Below are positions 6,031 to 19,621 of a stretch of 64,000 nucleotides of DNA, in pieces. Position 1 is the stretch's first letter, and each line of letters begins with the position of its first letter. The notes under the pieces were generated by a model, which saw nothing but the letters and a program-made list of their open reading frames with translations, was not told the origin of the DNA and searched no databases. Both the position numbers and the translations under genes were made by a program. Source of the DNA: Acidimicrobiia bacterium (GTDB taxonomy: Bacteria; Actinomycetota; Acidimicrobiia; Acidimicrobiales; Bin134); NCBI GenBank assembly GCA_022826705.1, contig JAJDUJ010000022.1, positions 44,989-108,988 of the forward strand, read 5' to 3'.

Positions 6031-7038
6031 CTAACCAGTCCCTACCGCGGCCCTGATGGACTCGCGTAGCGACTTCATTGTGGCGAACACGGCGGTGGGC
6101 TCGTAGCCGCAGTGGGCCATGCAGTTTTCGCAGCGGGGGTCTTTGCCGCGGCCGTAGCTGTCCCAGTCGGTGGTTTCGATCAGTTCCTGGTAGGTCTCGG
6201 TGTAGCCATCGGACATGAGGTAGCAGGGCCGCTGCCAGCCGAACACCGAGTAGCTGGGGATGCCCCAGGCGGTGCACTCGTACTCCACCTTGCCCTCAAG
6301 GAAGTCCAAGAACAGCGGCGTGTGGTTCAGCCGCCACTTCTTGCGCTTACCCTCGGAGAAGGCGTCCCTAAAGAGGCTCTTGGTCTGCTCCACCGGCAAG
6401 AAATGCTCCTGGTCGGGGGCCTTCTCGTAGGCGTACCCCGGCGAGATCATCATGGAGTCGACTTCCAGATCGTCGTTCAAGAAGTCGAGCACGCTGCGCA
6501 CGTCCTCGGGGCTATCGGTGCTGAAGAAGGTGCTGTTGGTGGTGACCCGGAAACCCTTGGCCTTGGCCTCGTTCACGGCCTCCACAACCTCGTCGAAGAC
6601 ACCCTCGCGGGCCACCGCCAGGTCGTGGCGCTCCTGAAGCCCGTCCACGTGGACCACGAACGAGAAGTAGGGCGACGGCGTGAACTTGTCGATCTTGCGC
6701 CGCAGCAGCACCGCGTTGGTACACAGGTACACGAACTTCTTGCGCTTGATGAGCTCGTCCACCATCTCGCTGATCTGGGGATGCAGCAACGGCTCGCCCC
6801 CGGCGATGGATACCATCGGGGCTCCGCACTCCTCCATGGCCGCCACCGCCTCGTCCACGCTGACCCGCTTGCGCAGCACCTCAGTTGGGTACTGGATCTT
6901 GCCGCAGCCCGGACACTCCAGATTGCAGGCGAACAGCGGTTCCAGCTCCACAATCAGCGGGAACTTCTCGCGGCGCCGCAGCTTGTTCTTGAACACGTAG
7001 GTGCCCACCTTTGCCGCTTGCCTCAGCGGAATAGGCAT
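6031..7038 (-). CDS. hpnH: radical-SAM adenosylhopane synthase HpnH
   Basis: CxxxCxxC in FACNLECPGCGKIQYP. Overall resemblance to HpnH. Last gene of the shc operon. Confidence 0.85.
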   Translation of the reverse strand: MPIPLRQAAKVGTYVFKNKLRRREKFPLIVELEPLFACNLECPGCGKIQYPTEVLRKRVSVDEAVAAMEECGAPMVSIAGGEPLLHPQISEMVDELIKRKKFVYLCTNAVLLRRKIDKFTPSPYFSFVVHVDGLQERHDLAVAREGVFDEVVEAVNEAKAKGFRVTTNSTFFSTDSPEDVRSVLDFLNDDLEVDSMMISPGYAYEKAPDQEHFLPVEQTKSLFRDAFSEGKRKKWRLNHTPLFLDFLEGKVEYECTAWGIPSYSVFGWQRPCYLMSDGYTETYQELIETTDWDSYGRGKDPRCENCMAHCGYEPTAVFATMKSLRESIRAAVGTG

Positions 7039-7597: not shown

Positions 7598-9480
7598 CCC
7601 TCACCCGTTGTCGCCTGCACCCAGCGGCCCAGGGCCATCAACGGGAACACCAGCCGGTAGAGGTGGTAGCGGATGTAGAAGTCGCCGGAGAAGCCGGTGC
7701 CGGTGTACCAGGGCTCGTCCCAGTCCCCGTCGTCGCGCTGGTGCTCTACCAGCCAGGCCACCCCTCGCTGGGCCGCCTCCTCGCTCGCACGCCCCGCGGC
7801 GATCAACGCCAGCAGCACCCATGCAGTCTGCGACGGGGTGGACTCCCCCCGCCCCCGCCAGTTGTCGTCGACATAGGAGCGCATGTCCTCGCCCCACCCG
7901 CCGTCTTGGTTTTGCACCGACTCCAGCCAGCGGCATGCTCGCACTATCCGGTTGTCGTCGGCGGGCACCCCGGCGCTGATCAACGCCGGGACCACCGCCC
8001 CGGTGCCGTAGAGGTAGTTGGCCCCCCAGCGCCCATACCAGGAACCGTCCTCCTCCTGCTCATCACTGAGCCACCGAACCCCGCGGTCCATTGCATTCCG
8101 GTCGATTGGGAAGCCCATACCGTCGGCATCCAGCTCGGCGAGCATCTCCACCACGTGGGCGGTCACATCGGCCGACGGCGGATCGATGACCTCTCCGAAA
8201 TCGCAGAACGGGAGCTCGGCCACCAGCGGCGAGCAGTTGTCGGCATCGAATGCCGCCCAGCCACCATCGGAGCACTGCATCCCCTGGGCCCACACCACCG
8301 CCCGATCCAGCGCCTTTTGCACCTGCTTGGCGTCGGGATGGCGGATGCGGCGCAGGGCGAGGGCCACCTCGGCGGTGTCGTCCAGATCGGGGTAGTAGTT
8401 GTTCTCGAACTCGAACGCCCATCCCCCCGGGGCCAGATGGGGGCGTTGCTCAGCCCAGTCGCCCACGATCTGGACCTCTTGATCGATGAGCCAGCGGGCC
8501 CCGGCCACCATCTGCGGGTCTTCGGCGTCCACACCGGCATCGGCCAGCGCGAGCAGCGCCAGGCAGGTATCCCAAACCGGCGACTGGCAGCACTCCAAGC
8601 GTCGCATGTCGTCTTCGACGATGGTCCAAGCGTCGAACCCGGCCAGCCCTTGGGCCAGAATCGGATGGTGCAGGGAATGGCCCCGCACGTACAGGGCCAA
8701 GAGCGAGTACACCCACGGCGGCTGGATGCCCCCCCAGCAGCCGTCGGACTCCTGACGGGCGATGATCCACTGCTCGGCCCGACTGAGCGCCCACTCCCGC
8801 ACCCGCCGCTGCGGACGGTTCTCGTAGAGATGCAGCACTTGATCAAGGCGCTGGAATCGCCGCGCTGGACTCCCGGGCGGGGCGAGCTCCCGTTCCGGGG
8901 GGATCGCCCCGGTGCGGATCTCATCCAGGTTCAGTCCCATAGACCGCACCGGGCGGTGAGCCCCCACCACGGTCAAAGCGACCAGGGTTTGGCGGGCCCA
9001 GCAGGCGAAGTCATAGATGTTCAGCGGAACCTGCTTGGGCAGAAAGATCACCTCGGGAGGCAGGGCGGGCAGGTCTTCCCATCGCCAGAGGTCGAAAAGC
9101 GCCATCCAGATTCGGGTGAAAACCCGGCTGCGCTCCAGCCCTCCCTCGGCGCGGATATAGGCGGCGGCTTTGGCCATGTGGTCGGCGTCGACGGGATCGC
9201 CGGCGTAGCGCAGCGCCCAGTAGGCCTCCACGGTCACCGACAGATCGGCCGGACCCTGGTAGAAGGTGGCCCACGTGCCGTCGGCTCGCTGGTTGTGGCG
9301 GATCCAGTTGGCCGTCTGCCGGGTGACCTCGGGGTCGGCGATGCCCAAGAACTCCCGGAGGAACAGATCCTCGGCCTCGATGGACACGTTGGTCTCCAGC
9401 TCGTCTTTCCACCATCCCTGAGTGTCTTGCAGACTGAGGAGCCGTTCGGTGGCCTTGGCCAAAGATTGCTCAACGCCCAT
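7594..9480 (-). CDS. shc: squalene-hopene cyclase
   Basis: DxDD motif in YYPDLDDTAEVALAL and QW-type repeats. The start is set to ATG 9480 (MGVEQSLAKATERLL), which overlaps the previous stop (TGATG 9478-9482). The 67 upstream codons of the ORF track are an Arg/Gly-rich artefact. Confidence 0.9.
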   Translation of the reverse strand: MGVEQSLAKATERLLSLQDTQGWWKDELETNVSIEAEDLFLREFLGIADPEVTRQTANWIRHNQRADGTWATFYQGPADLSVTVEAYWALRYAGDPVDADHMAKAAAYIRAEGGLERSRVFTRIWMALFDLWRWEDLPALPPEVIFLPKQVPLNIYDFACWARQTLVALTVVGAHRPVRSMGLNLDEIRTGAIPPERELAPPGSPARRFQRLDQVLHLYENRPQRRVREWALSRAEQWIIARQESDGCWGGIQPPWVYSLLALYVRGHSLHHPILAQGLAGFDAWTIVEDDMRRLECCQSPVWDTCLALLALADAGVDAEDPQMVAGARWLIDQEVQIVGDWAEQRPHLAPGGWAFEFENNYYPDLDDTAEVALALRRIRHPDAKQVQKALDRAVVWAQGMQCSDGGWAAFDADNCSPLVAELPFCDFGEVIDPPSADVTAHVVEMLAELDADGMGFPIDRNAMDRGVRWLSDEQEEDGSWYGRWGANYLYGTGAVVPALISAGVPADDNRIVRACRWLESVQNQDGGWGEDMRSYVDDNWRGRGESTPSQTAWVLLALIAAGRASEEAAQRGVAWLVEHQRDDGDWDEPWYTGTGFSGDFYIRYHLYRLVFPLMALGRWVQATTGEG

Positions 9481-10478
9481 CAAAAGTCCCTCCCCAAGAT
9501 GAAATCGGCCAGCTGCCGAAATTCCTCCACCACCTCTTCCACAACCTCCTCGTGCGCGGCCAGAGAATCGAGAGCGGAAACAGCCCGGTCGTAGTGGGTC
9601 CGGGCCAGTGCCTGGGTGCCTTCCCGGCCACCCCCCGCCTCCACCAGCGCTCGGGCTGCGTCCACGCCTCCGACATCCCAATCGGGACGGGAATAGAGCT
9701 CAGCCAGCTCCTCGGCTGCCGAGGTGCCGCTGTTGAGGGCGATCACCACCGGTACCGACTTCTTGCGCTCCCGAAGGTCGGCCCCCGCAGGCTTGCCGGT
9801 GCGCTCGGGGTCACCCCAGATGCCCAGAAGGTCATCCACGGCTTGGAACGCCACCCCCACCTCCGCCCCGAACTCAGCCAGCCCATCAACAACCGAGTCG
9901 TCGGCTTCGGCCAGTATCGCCCCCACCGAGGTCGCGTAGGACAAGAGCGCCCCGGTCTTGCCCTGCTCCATGGCCAGGCACTCCTCCAGGGTGACGAGAG
10001 TTCTCTCCTCGAAGGCCATGTCCATGCTCTGGCCGGCGATCATTGCCGAAACTGCTGCGGTCAGATGCTTGACCGCCTTGACCCTGGGCGCTGTGGGGTC
10101 GGACAGCAACACCTCATAGGCCAAGTTGTGGAGAGCATCTCCTGCCACCACGCCGACTCCAATGCCGAACTTGGCCCAGACCGTGGGCCGGTGCCGACGC
10201 TCGGCATCGTTGTCGATGATGTCGTCGTGGATCAGCGAGAAGTCGTGGATGAGCTCGATGGCCACCGCCCCGGGCACTCCGGTTTCCGAAGGGGCGCCCA
10301 CAGCCTCAGCCGACAAGATGGCCAGTGCCGGGCGGGTTCCCTTGCCCCGACTCTGGAAGTGGTATTCAGCGGGCACTCTCAGCTCAGGGCACAGCCCGCT
10401 CAGTGCGGCGGCAATGGCCGGGTCCACCAGCTCCCTGGCTCGGCTGAGGATGCCCGGAACCGGCATTCCCTCGCTCAC
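9480..10478 (-). CDS. polyprenyl diphosphate synthase (FPP/GGPP synthase family)
   Basis: Asp-rich motifs FSLIHDDIIDND and FQAVDDLLGIWGD. GTG 10478 overlaps the hpnE stop (GTGA). Confidence 0.85.
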   Translation of the reverse strand: MSEGMPVPGILSRARELVDPAIAAALSGLCPELRVPAEYHFQSRGKGTRPALAILSAEAVGAPSETGVPGAVAIELIHDFSLIHDDIIDNDAERRHRPTVWAKFGIGVGVVAGDALHNLAYEVLLSDPTAPRVKAVKHLTAAVSAMIAGQSMDMAFEERTLVTLEECLAMEQGKTGALLSYATSVGAILAEADDSVVDGLAEFGAEVGVAFQAVDDLLGIWGDPERTGKPAGADLRERKKSVPVVIALNSGTSAAEELAELYSRPDWDVGGVDAARALVEAGGGREGTQALARTHYDRAVSALDSLAAHEEVVEEVVEEFRQLADFILGRDF

Positions 10479-14621: not shown

Positions 14622-14688
14622 GCCTCCACTCTTATTCGGATTCCCGTGCTACCGCCAGCGCGTACCGGAAACTCGTGGCTGCGAATGG

Positions 14689-15888
14689 CTACTCCTGCTC
14701 GGCAATCTTGATGGCCTCTTCAAAGCTGGTGCCCTGCTCGATGAGGTTGCGGTACTTCATCACGTGGCGAGGCCGGTTGAAGCCAAGCACGCCGACCAGT
14801 CGGCCCGCTCGGCCGTAGAGGGCGGCAAACCGCCGCTCCTCGGTCGATCCGGTGATGATGCGCACCTCGTCGTCGGGCCGGGCTCGTCCCGCCAACTGGA
14901 TCTTGCGGTCGTACTGGTCGCTCCAGAACCACGGGACCGGGGCATAGGGCTGGGCCTCGTCGTCGGAGGCCAGCAGACGGAGCGCCGCATGCTGGCCCTG
15001 GGCAATGGCGTTGTCCCAGTGCTCCACCCGCATGATCTCGCCGAACAGGCGGTTGGGCCAGCGGGCCACGTCCCCGGCCGCGGCGATACCGGGAGCGGCC
15101 AAACAGGTCTCGTCGCACACCACGCCGTTGTCCAACTCCAGCCCCGAGCCCTCCAGCCACTCGGTATTGGGGATCACCCCGATGCCCACCACCACCACAT
15201 CGGCATCCATCGAAGTGCCGTCGCTCAGGTTCACCCGCTCCACCCGGCCATGGCCGTCGAAGCCGTCGACGCCCACGCCGAGTCGCAGGTCCACGCCGTG
15301 GTCTCGGTGCACATCAGCGCACACCGTGCCGACCTCGGTGCCCAATACGCGGCCCAGCGGCACCGGCAGGGCTTCGATCACAGTGACCTCCAGGCCCCGC
15401 TCCCGGGCGGTGGCCGCCACCTCGGCACCGATGAACCCGGCCCCCACCACCGCCACCCGCTGGGGAGAGTCCTCCAGTTCGGCTCGGATGGCCAGGCAGT
15501 CGTCCAGGCCCCGCAGGGTGTAGATGCCGTCGAGGCCGTTGGTGGGGAGCTCCCGGCATCGGGCCCCGGTGGCGATCAGAATGCCGTCGGCGGCGACCGT
15601 TGAGCCGTCGTCAAGCGTCACGGTCCGGTTGGCCACATCGAGCCCGGCGGCCCGGCGGCCCAGCCGCCAGTCGGCGCCTAGATCTTGGAGCGATTCATCG
15701 TCGGACAGAGCGATGCGGTCCTGCTCCCATTCCCCGGCGAGGAGCTGCTTGGACAGGGGAGGTCGGTCGTAGGGCTGGTGGGGCTCATCGCCGATGATGG
15801 TGATGGCCCCGTCGAAACCTTCTCGCCGGAGCATCTCCGCCGCCCGGGTTCCGGCCAGCGAAGCTCCGACAATCGCTAGTGAGCGCAG
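14689..15888 (-). CDS. ferredoxin--NAD(P)+ reductase (FAD pyridine-nucleotide-disulfide oxidoreductase family), probable CTG start
   Basis: Second Rossmann motif VAVVGAGFIGAEVA and a reductase C-terminal domain. The ORF track starts at ATG 15834, but the frame stays open upstream and encodes the obligatory FAD motif AIVGASLAG. CTG 15888 lies 10 nt after GAGGAG. Confidence 0.8.
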   Translation of the reverse strand: MRSLAIVGASLAGTRAAEMLRREGFDGAITIIGDEPHQPYDRPPLSKQLLAGEWEQDRIALSDDESLQDLGADWRLGRRAAGLDVANRTVTLDDGSTVAADGILIATGARCRELPTNGLDGIYTLRGLDDCLAIRAELEDSPQRVAVVGAGFIGAEVAATARERGLEVTVIEALPVPLGRVLGTEVGTVCADVHRDHGVDLRLGVGVDGFDGHGRVERVNLSDGTSMDADVVVVGIGVIPNTEWLEGSGLELDNGVVCDETCLAAPGIAAAGDVARWPNRLFGEIMRVEHWDNAIAQGQHAALRLLASDDEAQPYAPVPWFWSDQYDRKIQLAGRARPDDEVRIITGSTEERRFAALYGRAGRLVGVLGFNRPRHVMKYRNLIEQGTSFEEAIKIAEQE

Positions 15889-15895
15889 CGGGCGC

Positions 15896-16096
15896 CTACT
15901 CCTCGGCGACGGAGATGGCTTGCTTGGGGCAGCGCTGAATTGACTCGTTCACTCGTTCGCGAGCCTCATCCCCAGGGGTCTCGTTCAGCAGGTACAAAAA
16001 GTCGTCGTCGCGCACCTCGAAAATGTCAGGAGCGACCTGCATGCAAATGGCGTTGCTCTCACACAGGTCGTAGTCCACGACCACCCGGTATCCCAT
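15896..16096 (-). CDS. small 3Fe-4S-type ferredoxin
   Basis: MGYRVVVDYDLCESNAICMQVAPDIF...RCPKQAI (Cx5C...CP). SD GGAGGA sits 5 nt before ATG 16096. Confidence 0.8.
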   Translation of the reverse strand: MGYRVVVDYDLCESNAICMQVAPDIFEVRDDDFLYLLNETPGDEARERVNESIQRCPKQAISVAEE

Positions 16097-16187: not shown

Positions 16188-16490
16188 TCAGGGGAGGATG
16201 TCGTGACTGCCGACTTGCAGCCAAACCACATGGCGCTTGCCAGAGACCTGCTCCGAACCCCAGGCGAATGTGGCTCGACCATCGGGTGCCCAAGACATCT
16301 CGTAGACGTTGGATGCGCCCACCACCTTCTTGACCCGCAGTCCAGGACGGAACCAGTCAATGCGGCCTTCTTCAATCTCCCGAAGGTCGGCAACGAAGGA
16401 CCTCAAACTACTCCTGAGCTGGGCAGCTTGAGCAGGTGCGAGGTGTCTCAGCCCGCGCCGGAATGCCGGCTTCATTGCGTATGTGGGCAC
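16188..16490 (-). CDS. RelE/ParE-superfamily toxin-like protein
   Basis: KPAFRRGLRHLAPAQAAQLRSSLRSFVADL then VYEMSWAPDGRATF...RHVVWLQVGSHDIL. This is the pattern of RelE/ParE/YafQ-type toxins (helical N-terminus, beta-sheet, C-terminal xGxHDxL). Confidence 0.55.
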   Translation of the reverse strand: MPTYAMKPAFRRGLRHLAPAQAAQLRSSLRSFVADLREIEEGRIDWFRPGLRVKKVVGASNVYEMSWAPDGRATFAWGSEQVSGKRHVVWLQVGSHDILP

Positions 16491-16510
16491 CGCAGATGGA
16501 GCGTGTGATG

Positions 16511-16717
16511 CTAATCAGGGACTGCGTCGTTCAGATGCACGTCGACAGCAGCCAGAAAGTCTTCGGAATTGGCATGAAATGTGCAATCAGATACGTCGGA
16601 GGCAGGCCCATTACCGGTGTCGGCTTCAATATCAGCCACCGTGAGCGCTTCGGGCTGCGATTCTCTGCGCTGCTTTCGGCTCGAAGGCAGCCAATGGCGC
16701 AAGCTTGTAAGAGCCAT
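16511..16717 (-). CDS. hypothetical small acidic protein, candidate antitoxin
   Basis: 68 aa from ATG 16717, preceded by GGAGGA with a 6-nt spacer. It ends 20 nt upstream of the toxin-like ORF. No DNA-binding fold is recognisable. Confidence 0.35.
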   Translation of the reverse strand: MALTSLRHWLPSSRKQRRESQPEALTVADIEADTGNGPASDVSDCTFHANSEDFLAAVDVHLNDAVPD

Positions 16718-16839
16718 CAGCAGTCCTCCGAGGTCAACACCGCCACCCACTCTACCTAGCCATCATCAGAATGCGACAGGCAGTCTCCACATCATCATGT
16801 AGAGGTTCCTGGCCCTTGCAGCGGCCAGTCAGCACCTGA

Positions 16840-17982
16840 ATGGCCTCTAGGCTGCAGAGCAGCAGTCCGAACGTCGCTCGAATCACAGAGGTAGAGCATT
16901 CACTGGAACACAGGGCATTCGACTACAGTTGCCAGCCCCAAAGACTGAATTGGCCAGACACAGAATCAGGTGAAGAAAGACGAGGAGCTATGTCGACGGT
17001 CGACATTCGAGACGATGAAGCCTCCAACGGGGCCTCTTCCATACCCACAGATTCGACACCAACCCATGCACACGACAATCAGATCCCACAGAGTCCTTCC
17101 CGCGCAGAACTTCGAACCCGCGCTCTTGAATCTCGGAACAGCTACGAAGTCGGCGAGCTTCCGAGCGAGGAAGAGGGCGCCGAGATTGACAACGCACTGC
17201 ACCTGGAGGCTGAAGACGAGTCCTCACTAGGAGTCGCCTTTAGATTTCTCGTATTGGACGACATCCCGGATGACGAGAGGATTGGTGCTCTTCAGGAAGA
17301 ACGCGGCCACACCAGCCCTGGGACAGCCATCGGCCTGCGACAACACTTGGACGCACTCCGATTTGGCATCTTTCCCCAGGGCACGTCGATGGCGAGGCAA
17401 ATCGCTGCCCGCATGAAGTCCACGATGCGTAGACATGACTTCTCGGATAGCACTCGTGCAGTACTCGAGCGAAACATTGCCGCACTCGAGAAAATCGCAG
17501 CCGACACTGACTTGTTCGAGGACGAACAGCTGCAGGCTGAAGTCGCCGAGCAAAGTTTGGAAGACAAGTTGAGGGGCCGCGCTGGTGTGTACGTCTTTAC
17601 CTATCCCCACTACATGCGCCATCCGACCCACCAGTCGGCTGAATCCGAGAAGATGCCGGACCGCACGCTCCTGAAGGTCGGATTTAGCGACAGCGGCATC
17701 CTGGAACGAGTGAACCAAGAGACCAGCGGGGCGGGAGTGCCAGAGCACCGCCGGGTCCTGCGCGCCTATTTGACGACAGAACGTGAGATTCCTTCGAACA
17801 AGAAGATCGAGCGACAGTTCCACGATCTGCTGGATTCAGCGGGCCATGTGGGACCAAAACGGGGTTCTACAGAGCATCAGCGTGGTGGGAGAGAGTGGTT
17901 CTATACGAGTGTTGAATTCTTGGATCAGGTCGCTGGGCTGTTGGACCTGGAGATAGTTGAGATCGAAGCACCGGACCTCTAA
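16840..17982 (+). CDS. T5orf172/MUG113 (GIY-YIG-superfamily) domain protein with long acidic N-terminal region
   Basis: C-terminal GVYVFTYP...LLKVGFSDSGILERVNQ...IERQFHDLL...GGREWFYTSVEFL matches the T5orf172 pattern. The N-terminal ~230 aa are acidic and low-complexity. Alternative start ATG 16990. Confidence 0.6.
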   Translation: MASRLQSSSPNVARITEVEHSLEHRAFDYSCQPQRLNWPDTESGEERRGAMSTVDIRDDEASNGASSIPTDSTPTHAHDNQIPQSPSRAELRTRALESRNSYEVGELPSEEEGAEIDNALHLEAEDESSLGVAFRFLVLDDIPDDERIGALQEERGHTSPGTAIGLRQHLDALRFGIFPQGTSMARQIAARMKSTMRRHDFSDSTRAVLERNIAALEKIAADTDLFEDEQLQAEVAEQSLEDKLRGRAGVYVFTYPHYMRHPTHQSAESEKMPDRTLLKVGFSDSGILERVNQETSGAGVPEHRRVLRAYLTTEREIPSNKKIERQFHDLLDSAGHVGPKRGSTEHQRGGREWFYTSVEFLDQVAGLLDLEIVEIEAPDL

Positions 17983-18326
17983 TGGGCGTACGAATCCGTA
18001 TCTCAAGGTGAGGGAAGCAACAAGAGAGTGGCAATCTACAGTGACCCATCTCAGTCCTCGGCAAGCCTGAAGCATGCCGTATACCGAAATCGCCTCGCCT
18101 AGTCCAAAGTACCCTCCTTCAAATGGAGCGCGAATCTGAGAGACCCTCTGAGTCACAGGGTTGGCGAATCCACTGGAGGTCTCCGAGGCTGCCACCGCGG
18201 GGAGACCTAAGCGACTACATGCAGGGTCCGGACGCAGAATTCGACGGGACACTACGAGGAGCCTGGAGACTGTGGCGGGAAACAGGCCGTGCACAGAGAC
18301 GAGTGGAGGTGTGGGAGGCAGAGAGC

Positions 18327-18926
18327 ATGCACTACCCGGCAGAGGGCCACATCGACGACATCAGGGCCGCAACCCGTCAACTGCACGAAGTCGCAGAAGC
18401 GAATGGCCTTGAGGTCGTCGAAGACTGGCCTGAATCCTCCACGGCGCTCGCGGAGATTTCTCTCGCCGAGAACCTCGTATTACTGGCACCAGGCCAATCC
18501 GAAGATCTGCTCATGGCTTCGCTGGCCCACGAACTAGGCCACTTCATGGATCCATGGCTACAAGCGAACTGGGAGTGGTACGACAGCTATCGCAATGAGG
18601 GCGACATCGAAATCGTCGCCCAGATGGCCGCCGCCATATTTGCCGACTGGTACGGCATCAACCTACTCGCCAACACCGACGGGTATCTTTCCTACTGGGC
18701 TCGCACCTCCAAGGCCCGTCGAGAAGGCACCGTAGGAGAATTGTTGGAACGGGCCTCCATCAGCGGCCTCAGCCTCCTCCCGCAAACCCAGGACGTGGCT
18801 CACGAACTCGATCGCGCCCACCAACGGGCTAGTTACCGCAACGCCACCTCCGGCTTCCTAGGTCGCTTCTTCCGAAGCGAGCGCCGAGAACAAAAGCTAG
18901 GCATCATCGATTGCAGTGACTGGTAG
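18327..18926 (+). CDS. ImmA/IrrE-like (DUF955) HExxH zinc metallopeptidase
   Basis: LAHELGHF about 68 aa after ATG 18327, which is preceded by GGGAGG with an 8-nt spacer. The pre-motif region (NGLEVVEDWPESSTALAEISLAENLVLLAPGQSEDLLMASLAHELGH) resembles ImmA. The ORF track extends to 18123. Confidence 0.55.
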   Translation: MHYPAEGHIDDIRAATRQLHEVAEANGLEVVEDWPESSTALAEISLAENLVLLAPGQSEDLLMASLAHELGHFMDPWLQANWEWYDSYRNEGDIEIVAQMAAAIFADWYGINLLANTDGYLSYWARTSKARREGTVGELLERASISGLSLLPQTQDVAHELDRAHQRASYRNATSGFLGRFFRSERREQKLGIIDCSDW

Positions 18927-19038
18927 CAATAGTTCAATCTGTCTTGGACCATTCTTCAAGCACTTACTTTCTTGCAAGGAAGGACCGAATGTACTACTTT
19001 TCGCGCCCACAGAAAATTCATAAAGGAACACGGATAGC

Positions 19039-19599
19039 ATGGAAGATGTAACTCAAGTGCTCTCAGCAATTGCATCTGTAGCAGCTGTTGTAATCGCATA
19101 TATATCATACCGAGCTTATAAGTTCCTTCTTCCTTCAGCAGAACTGAAGCGCAAGAAGGATGAGGCAATGAATCAAATTGCTGGACTTCTATTGGAATTT
19201 CACGATCAACAGAAAACTATAGCTAGCGCTTTAGTAAACAACTTTCACTTGGACCCTTATGTTCTGTCATCAAGAGGTCGCAATTCAAGACATCTATATC
19301 GACTGCTAGATAAGGCCATCAAACTTGGGCTATGGCAAGAAATTACAGGCAACCATGATTTGAGTATTACACTGTATACTGCATTTCGACAGAGTTTGGC
19401 TTCCCTAGCAGACTTGGACCCGATCACTGCAGACCCCAATGACTATTTGCCGCAGCATGTTGTAATGGGCACAATCCGACTTGCGGATCAGTGCCGAAAA
19501 TATGAAGGCCTGGACCTTGCTGGCGAAGTAGAAAGCGTGTTTTCCTCCATGTTGACACACCAGTCATTGGAAGAGGCTTGGGACTACTTGAAGTCATAG
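19039..19599 (+). CDS. hypothetical membrane-anchored protein (orphan, about 40% GC)
   Basis: N-terminal TM helix VLSAIASVAAVVIAYISY, then about 150 aa of helical sequence with no motif I recognise. The only long ORF in this AT-rich stretch. Confidence 0.5.
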   Translation: MEDVTQVLSAIASVAAVVIAYISYRAYKFLLPSAELKRKKDEAMNQIAGLLLEFHDQQKTIASALVNNFHLDPYVLSSRGRNSRHLYRLLDKAIKLGLWQEITGNHDLSITLYTAFRQSLASLADLDPITADPNDYLPQHVVMGTIRLADQCRKYEGLDLAGEVESVFSSMLTHQSLEEAWDYLKS

Positions 19600-19621
19600 T
19601 CGAATATTCGGCTCTCAAAGT

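Follow-up and report, generated by a model that had tools for sequence, protein, structure and literature searches.

Three genes that lie side by side on one strand of a small low-GC islet in an Acidimicrobiia bacterium raise a simple question: do they make up one defence system, or are they neighbors of separate origin? The genes, which we call ORF1, ORF2 and ORF3 (ORF, open reading frame), are located in a 64,000-nt stretch of contig JAJDUJ010000022.1. We refer to this whole stretch as the window, and positions below are counted from its first letter unless another locus is named. The original prediction, made from the letters alone, had proposed the trio as a candidate functional module, possibly a protease-gated nuclease and/or membrane effector of the abortive-infection type. 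Our comparisons did not bear this out, as the three genes were never found together outside the window's species. On sequence comparison, the trio is a set of separate cargo genes and not one three-gene defence system, because each gene is found elsewhere without the other two. The explanation that we favor, with a probability of about 0.7, is that they are independent cargo at a hotspot and that ORF1 is a stand-alone conflict nuclease.

The general layout was as the original prediction had described it: three co-directional ORFs on the plus strand, opposite in direction to flanking genes that are all on the minus strand. The window has a GC content of 65% overall and 65-73% in the flanks, and the low-GC islet was found at ~16.2-19.6 kb with 43-59% GC, against ~65-70% around it. 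The three genes are not uniform in composition (ORF1 57%, ORF2 60% and ORF3 44% GC, window mean 65%), and the gaps between them are 140 nt and 112 nt. With start sites revised as explained below, their features are as follows.

16990..17982, plus strand: ORF1, resident gene of the hotspot (330 aa with the corrected start)
aa 1 to ~36 of ORF1, plus strand: variable tail, from the family alignment
aa ~37-195 of ORF1 (nt 17098-17574), plus strand: conserved acidic all-helical N-domain
aa ~196-330 of ORF1 (nt 17575-17979), plus strand: predicted C-terminal T5orf172/GIY-YIG-type nuclease domain
17983..19621, no strand: right-hand variable cargo slot holding ORF2 and ORF3, window-specific in blastn maps
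18123..18926, plus strand: ORF2, 267 aa (alternative start 18219), predicted soluble gluzincin-type metallopeptidase
nt 18528-18542, plus strand: HExxH motif of ORF2 (H136, E137, H140)
nt 18609-18611, plus strand: E163 of ORF2, presumed third metal ligand
19039..19599, plus strand: ORF3, 186 aa, apparent low-GC single-gene cassette
aa ~4-24 of ORF3 (nt 19048-19110), plus strand: N-terminal membrane anchor, then an orphan domain of ~160 aa

We collected 32 loci with homologs of the three genes, taking flanks of 7-10 kb where the contig allowed. ORF1-family genes were present in 22 of them including the window (~16 non-redundant), and the ORF1-family loci were all from Acidimicrobiia metagenome-assembled genomes (MAGs), including Ca. 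Poriferisodalis and Ca. Poriferisocius. Neither ORF2 nor ORF3 occurred near an ORF1 homolog in any of the ~16 non-redundant loci outside the window's species, and conversely ORF1 was missing from the surroundings of the ORF2 homologs (0 of 5 other loci) and of the sole other ORF3 locus. On chromosome OZ246892.1, homologs of ORF1 and ORF2 are ~2 Mb apart. The original prediction had itself named a failure of the trio to co-occur elsewhere as evidence against a module, and outside the window's species that is what we observed. The other copies of the trio, L029-L031, do not represent independent co-occurrence, because all three are this one locus in the window's own species (98-100% nucleotide identity). 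DNA homology between the window and the other ORF2 loci was restricted to the ORF2 gene, suggesting that ORF2 moves as a single gene, and homologs of ORF2 and ORF3 were located amid insertion sequence (IS) elements in L001, L003 and L027. ORF2 and ORF3 are probably single-gene cargo, each acquired independently.

If the genes are separate, what sort of site brings them together? The backbone of the window is common to five other genomes (L006, L010, L014, L020 and L025). It consists of squalene/phytoene-synthase genes, a MerR/TetR regulator, ferredoxin reductase and ferredoxin on the left, and of a lipoprotein gene and a thiolase/ChsH2-like operon on the right, and all five syntenic genomes carry an ORF1 allele between these flanks. 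In blastn maps the common backbone stops at ~16215 and restarts at ~19620, with 17983-19615 unique to the window, and the right slot extends precisely from the stop codon of ORF1 to that of the convergent lipoprotein gene. This slot is occupied by ORF2 and ORF3 in the window, by MazEF in L006, L010 and L025, and by an AAA ATPase with PIN/Phd (VapBC) in L020; in L014 it is ~50 bp long and has no gene. The left slot holds a pair of small ORFs resembling a toxin-antitoxin (TA) pair in the window and a compact defence island in L014, a Ca. Poriferisocius MAG. The latter island (L014:3786-9894) is at the same ferredoxin-thiolase site, directly upstream of the T5orf172 gene, and encodes SoFic (PADLOC/Pfam E=8.5e-117), Shedu SduA (4e-123), a CBASS cyclase (2.5e-91), a 2TM/Cap15 effector (7e-63), AbiLi (AAA_21, 8e-87) and a FitA-like RHH antitoxin. 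The suspected defence neighborhood is therefore genuine: because the slot contents vary around ORF1 among sister genomes, the site is a real TA/defence hotspot with ORF1 as its constant member.

We picture the islet as accessory DNA in an integration hotspot specific to one lineage, the sponge-type Acidimicrobiia; the hotspot lies between the ferredoxin gene and the convergent lipoprotein/thiolase operon and offers a cargo slot on either side of the resident ORF1. Like described defence islands and integration hotspots, it has a fixed site between conserved core genes, variable TA/defence cargo, low GC and mosaic divergence. Unlike them, it is very small, carries single- or two-gene cassettes, and has a constant resident T5orf172 gene between two slots, the homologs of which mark similar islets elsewhere. 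It also differs in the hallmarks of integration found at its edges. No integrase, relaxase, tRNA or structural phage gene is located at the islet within the window, a search for island boundaries in the form of tRNAs, Rfam elements or flanking repeats returned only short, chance-level repeats, and the junctions inspected had neither target duplications nor hairpins.

The association of ORF1 with such genes is not confined to this site. At every site examined, six on chromosomes and one on a plasmid, ORF1 homologs adjoin TA or defence genes, in agreement with the statement in the original prediction that T5orf172 recurs in defence neighborhoods. Neighbors at the other sites include PIN-Phd, AAA_14, an NYN/HEC-09-like gene, an AbiEi/AbiEii-like pair, a HEPN and MarR-type pair, DarT, a DarG-like gene, UvrD and HipBA. 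The sole plasmid relative of ORF1 (34% identity) is on the Curtobacterium plasmid NZ_CP126274.1 (230965-233666), where it is annotated as a GIY-YIG nuclease family protein and genes for a RES toxin and an Xre/MbcA/ParS antitoxin come after it; the T5orf172-TA association therefore reaches beyond Acidimicrobiia.

The genes that follow the T5orf172 gene in L004 and L005 were considered as divergent analogues of ORF2 and rejected, since they encode an NYN/HEC-09-like protein and an AbiEi/AbiEii-like pair. The NYN/PIN-like gene encodes 245 aa (PADLOC HEC-09, E=1.8e-23) and was found at L004:9196-9933 and L016:8992-9726. In L004/L021 this gene directly follows the ORF1 homolog, and in L016 it directly precedes it.

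What kind of protein does the resident gene encode? By HMM (hidden Markov model) threshold, modelled fold and core residues alike, ORF1 belongs to the T5orf172 family, as the original prediction had proposed for its C-terminal part. Against a gathering cut-off of 20, the Pfam T5orf172 profile PF10544 scored 31.7 bits (E=2.2e-7); its positions 7-97 of 101 aligned to aa 268-365 in the uncorrected 380-aa ORF1, and the score for MUG113 was slightly under the cut-off of that family. We found 46 homologs, nearly all ~330 aa long, and 41 of these have a precomputed PF10544 match. The AlphaFold2 (AF2) model had a pLDDT of 78.8 overall (~90 in the N-domain, 63-89 in the C-domain). Its best matches among BFVD structures were annotated as T5 Orf172 or GIY-YIG (probability 0.95-1.0, E 1e-3 to 5e-2), with alignments of 130-150 residues at a root-mean-square deviation (rmsd) of 3.8-6.8; a Foldseek search of the PDB gave nothing meaningful. 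Across 44 aligned sequences the invariant residues were G199, Y201, K229, G231, R240, E274 and H278, with a K229-V-G231 core, and G299-G300-x-E302-W303-F304. We infer that some of these positions may be catalytic.

The ORF1 start originally given, 16840, had to be abandoned. Nearly all homologs with an intact N-terminus, and the gene callers on identical contigs, use ATG 16990 (M51), and ORF1 therefore almost certainly extends from 16990 to 17982 (330 aa). The ~230 aa ahead of the nuclease domain had been described as acidic and of low complexity, and the first half of that description holds: the N-domain has a net charge of -15, a pI of 4.6 and zero Cys (family means for charge and pI, -10 and 5.0). 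The second half does not, as the alignment and the AF2 model delineate a conserved, all-helical domain of ~155 aa, with a pLDDT of ~90, behind a variable tail of ~36 aa. The domain had no match in Pfam, the PDB (Foldseek) or BFVD and, since Foldseek gave no meaningful PDB match, it stays an orphan. What is new here is this uncharacterised T5orf172 architecture with an orphan N-domain. The gene is functional, given its dN/dS of 0.09-0.15 against the syntenic alleles. It was present in one copy per genome in 13 genomes, the family occupies at least six chromosomal sites, and L022 holds one copy with an internal deletion, the other copies being mostly intact.

Phage T5orf172 proteins include putative homing endonucleases of ICP1-like phages and the Odn nuclease (PMC10448857, PMC8263062), and a Zn-finger DNA-binding module (CapR/DUF723/DUF4397) is present in 87% of the T5orf172 homing endonuclease genes (HEGs) surveyed (PMC10448857). 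ORF1 resembles these phage proteins in its C-terminal T5orf172/GIY-YIG-type domain, whose conserved core residues include glutamates, in a two-part build with a non-nuclease N-terminal module, and in a position at boundaries of sequence exchange. Unlike them, it is chromosomal in Acidimicrobiia, occurs once per genome, and had no phage relatives in INPHARED (tblastn) or IMG/VR. It also departs from them in architecture, with an acidic, Cys-free helical fold in place of the basic Zn-finger module. In view of this contrast (PMC10448857), the N-domain is most likely a regulatory, sensor or partner-binding module and not a classical DNA-binding one.

We propose that ORF1 would act alone as a predicted DNA nuclease. 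Its role is most likely conflict-related, that of a single-gene defence nuclease or, less likely, of a homing-type nuclease. A stand-alone phage-defence protein of E. coli has a nuclease domain that we take to be T5orf172; compared with it, ORF1 is without a membrane anchor and without DUF4041.

Might ORF1 itself be responsible for the turnover of cargo around it? We think it possible, albeit doubtful, that the ORF1 family is a new actinobacterial single-gene conflict element, either an undescribed anti-phage nuclease that works alone or a homing-type nuclease of the chromosome that seeds and maintains small hotspots of TA/defence cargo, with ORF2 and a short paralog described below separately forming a two-protease module. 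Such an element would explain both the varied TA/defence neighbors at six or more sites and the break in homology at the ORF1 stop codon. This break was consistent: homology between genomes ended -2 to +9 nt from the ORF1 stop in each of the 9 comparisons at sites A-C.

The break also lends itself to a narrower explanation that we consider unlikely, namely that ORF1 is a homing-type or selfish nuclease gene and that its cutting, followed by repair, sets the limits of genetic exchange and in this way drives cargo turnover in the neighboring slots, as in phage 'HEG islands'. The feature is not HEG-specific, as any conserved gene between cassettes would show breakpoints at its ends, and at site D the sequences are collinear around ORF1. 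The spread of ORF1 over at least six chromosomal sites and the internally deleted copy in L022 would fit homing, and so would the precedent of phage T5orf172 genes as putative homing endonucleases at boundaries of genetic exchange (PMC10448857). Two measures of divergence point in the same direction by suggesting allele exchange. The dS of ORF1 was 0.75-2.4 in the five syntenic genomes, compared to 0.31-0.52 for the adjacent thiolase gene, a difference of 2-4.5x; ORF1 alleles may predate the divergence of the backbone, or weaker codon bias could have inflated dS. When the window was compared with L030, a conspecific assembly from another sample, the islet (16188-19621) differed by 0.2-0.5% and the flanks by 2.2-5.9%, or ~10x, which reflects either a recent block exchange or a chimeric metagenome scaffold. 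Speaking against homing are the single copy per genome, strongly purifying selection on copies that are mostly intact, the lack of relatives in the phage and IMG/VR searches, and an N-domain unlike the Zn-finger modules of phage HEGs. Taken together, the break at the stop codon and the two measures of divergence suggest that recombination exchanges alleles and cargo at this site, with the caveats of weaker codon bias in the islet and possibly chimeric scaffolds.

The second gene, ORF2, had been called an ImmA/IrrE-like protease. This holds at the level of the superfamily: H136/E137/H140 and E163 were invariant in 19 aligned sequences (HExxH...E), and the AF2 model (pLDDT 78.8, core mostly >85) has the topology of a zincin, with a helix, a three-stranded sheet, the HExxH helix (127-142) and the Glu helix (159-176). 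It does not hold at the level of the Pfam family. No Pfam model reached its threshold, with Peptidase_M78 (PF06114, nothing at E<=1), ArdcN (PF08401) and MPTase-PolyVal (PF18818) all unmatched, and the only direct library matches were DUF6782 (E=0.42) and phrog_87 'metallo-protease' (E=0.031). An exhaustive profile search recovered 77 remote relatives, 63 of which were scanned for domains: ArdcN and DUF6782 were each present in 31, Peptidase_M78 in 25 and MPTase-PolyVal in 23. ArdcN together with a zincin domain was present in 3 of the 10 closest. Foldseek ranked an M78-type mycobacterial regulator, IrrE/PprI and minigluzincins first in the PDB, none of them significant (3dte, E=0.33, probability 0.75; 6cz6, E=0.21; 8sln, E=1.0; high rmsd). 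The JGI metagenomes scanned with the ORF2 profile yielded no relative. The sole PDB sequence match to this profile, the HD-domain oxygenase TmpB (E=0.017), was rejected as a motif-level coincidence (HDxGH versus HExGH), because the ORF2 model has zincin topology and the remote relatives are zincins.

The LAHELGH motif reported previously is present, and the ATG at 18327 proposed as the start is not the beginning of the gene. Residues 14-68, numbered for an ORF from 18123, are conserved with a dN/dS of ~0.08 (whole ORF2, ~0.14), which places the start upstream of 18327, probably at 18123 (267 aa) and possibly at 18219. At its N-terminus ORF2 has a segment peculiar to the family, and at its C-terminus a long helical extension. 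The family tail, E-L-G-[LI]-[VI]-D-C-S-D-W (nt 18864-18926), contains the invariant residues C264 and W267.

The C-terminal domain of ArdC is a gluzincin with IrrE as its closest bacterial structural homolog, and the active-site motifs of ORF2 fit the described ArdC protease domain (PMC7213743). In common with ArdC (R388), IrrE/PprI and ImmA, ORF2 has HExxH on one helix and Glu on the next. Unlike ArdC, it has no ArdcN ssDNA-binding domain and lies in a chromosomal islet without transfer genes; unlike IrrE/ImmA, it has no GAF-like IrrE C-domain and no adjacent helix-turn-helix (HTH) repressor. The original prediction had remarked on the missing XRE/HTH partner, and scans against Pfam, NCBIfam and PHROGs likewise gave no HTH match in the islet ORFs scanned (the 79-aa acidic ORF was not scanned). 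No conserved HTH neighbor accompanied the ORF2 homologs in L001, L002, L009 or L027; in L028 an HTH_3 gene is 1.3 kb from the homolog. Judging by alignment and model, ORF2 would be an ArdC/IrrE-type protease domain without ArdcN and without an HTH partner, and it is not a demonstrable member of M78 or of ArdC.

A partner of another kind does recur. In 4 of the 5 other ORF2 loci, the homolog adjoins a short, distant paralog of itself (27-33% identity, 167-194 aa), which itself carries HELAH and E..VAQTAANEF motifs; the two genes are arranged in tandem in some loci and convergently in others. No short paralog is present in the window; those found elsewhere are located as follows.

L002:7058-7642: short ORF2 paralog
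L009:10816-11400 and 6695-6940: short ORF2 paralogs
L001:10311-10814: short ORF2 paralog
L027, ~7959: short ORF2 paralog

ORF2 and the short paralog could constitute a new two-protease module of the ArdC/IrrE kind. ORF2 itself is a predicted Zn-dependent protease that would cut a protein target independently of ORF1 and that elsewhere may work beside the short paralog. ORF3 was considered as a stand-in for this paralog and rejected, as the two had no similarity.

Other genes were seen beside ORF2 homologs as well. The segments L001:10924-14369 and L002:8970-12425 each hold a Peptidase_M48 gene (78% identity between the loci) and a gene for a large protein without annotation (654-666 aa, 32% identity); neither is in the window. 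In L001, identical inverted copies of an ISL3-transposase fragment with a 263-aa Pro/Arg-rich ORF (8888-10244 and 14635-15991) bracket the short paralog, the M48 peptidase and the 654-aa protein in a composite-transposon-like arrangement.

Peptidases of the ImmA/IrrE type can take part in phage defence. For ORF2 and ORF3 individually, a role of the TA, defence or anti-defence type is plausible, because sister genomes fill the same slot with MazEF or VapBC.

Is the islet instead a remnant of a larger mobile element? We regard it as very unlikely that it is a decayed prophage, plasmid or integrative and conjugative element with ORF2 as a leftover ArdC-like anti-restriction gene. ArdC is an established anti-restriction factor (PMC7213743), and the occurrence of ArdcN plus a zincin domain among the closest remote relatives of ORF2 would suit this origin. 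It would also be in keeping with the IS elements around ORF2 and ORF3 homologs (L001, L003 and L027) and with distant ORF2 homologs (25-28% identity) on 34 Priestia/Bacillus plasmids, most of them mobilizable, of which the one inspected carries the homolog ~1.2 kb downstream of a MobP2 relaxase gene. The islet itself argues otherwise: within the window it has no integrase, relaxase, tRNA, structural phage gene or flanking repeats, ORF2 has no ArdcN, and homology from locus to locus is confined to single genes. A prophage origin in particular, which the original prediction had raised as a way in which it might fail, was rejected because IMG/VR scans and a tblastn search of INPHARED found nothing for any of the three proteins; moreover, purifying selection acts on all the genes, which are not in decay.

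ORF3, the third gene, matched its earlier description as an orphan with an N-terminal hydrophobic anchor. The Kyte-Doolittle maximum over 19 residues was 2.1, at aa 4-22, and no family match was obtained in Pfam, NCBIfam, PHROGs or PADLOC and no phage, plasmid or IMG/VR match. A search of 5.8 billion protein clusters returned one relative (P0067), with 62% identity over the full length, which is encoded at the following position.

L003:5153-5713: ORF3 homolog, among IS110, IS630-like and IS256-like transposase genes

Between the two genes pN was 0.23 and pS 0.87 (saturated); with pN so far below pS, ORF3 is under purifying selection. Its GC content was 44% in the window and 42% in L003, both in contexts of 60-65% GC, and it appears to be a single-gene cassette from a low-GC donor.

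Some observations weigh against reading the three genes as independent cargo around a conflict nuclease. The genes are co-directional, their gaps are short and four assemblies of the species carry the trio intact, so an operon would fit as well. The ~10x lower divergence of the islet relative to its flanks implies at least one event in which the whole block moved or swept together. For comparison there were no more than 5 further ORF2 loci and 1 further ORF3 locus, all of them in metagenome assemblies from a single bacterial class. A consensus scan for sigma-70 promoters and intrinsic terminators found none and is uninformative for this phylum. PADLOC-DB v2.0.0 had no model at E<=1 for any of ORF1, ORF2 and ORF3 (scans with NCBIfam and PHROGs were likewise without significant results for the three), and the defence role is consequently argued from association.

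Least probable of all is one abortive-infection-type system in which the ORF2 protease gates the ORF1 nuclease and/or the ORF3 membrane protein, for the operon-like spacing, the four intact assemblies, the uniformly low divergence and the hotspot location that would accommodate it are opposed by zero co-occurrence outside the species (~16 ORF1, 5 ORF2 and 1 ORF3 loci), by homologs 2 Mb apart in one genome, by the persistence of ORF1 at the same site with MazEF, VapBC or nothing downstream, by a conserved partner of ORF2 that is its own paralog, and by GC contents that differ among the three genes.

Adjacency within a defence hotspot thus does not make a system, and comparative genomics parted three neighbors that looked like an operon. 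The novelty lies in the T5orf172 architecture of this hotspot islet and in a stand-alone gluzincin family, and not in a new system. The ORF1 family is a good candidate for the discovery of defence genes in a poorly studied, sponge-associated lineage, and it also suits the question of whether GIY-YIG-type nucleases shape chromosomal hotspots as has been proposed for phages. A second lead is the stand-alone ArdC/IrrE-like protease family, usually found as a pair of long and short paralogs. Neither lead alters current concepts unless a new mechanism is shown.

The left slot of the window holds a tandem pair of ORFs on the minus strand (16188-16750), laid out with the acidic one first like a type II TA pair.

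16188..16490, minus strand: small ORF, 100 aa (95 aa according to gene callers), left variable slot, downstream gene of the TA-like two-gene arrangement
16511..16750, minus strand: small acidic ORF, 79 aa (68 aa from 16717 according to gene callers), upstream partner of the 100-aa ORF

The 100-aa ORF gave an impression of being RelE/ParE-like, which was confirmed neither by any library nor by the PDB: it had no match in Pfam, NCBIfam, PHROG or PADLOC (E<=1) or in the PDB. It was called as a gene in L029 and L030 and was missing from the syntenic L006 and L010. The 79-aa acidic ORF, possibly a candidate antitoxin, was 89-91% identical in L006-L008, where the downstream ORF was not present. An apparent deletion of its region in L030 proved to be a scaffold gap of Ns. 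A homolog of the 100-aa ORF in L009 had 45% identity and likewise had a small acidic ORF ahead of it.

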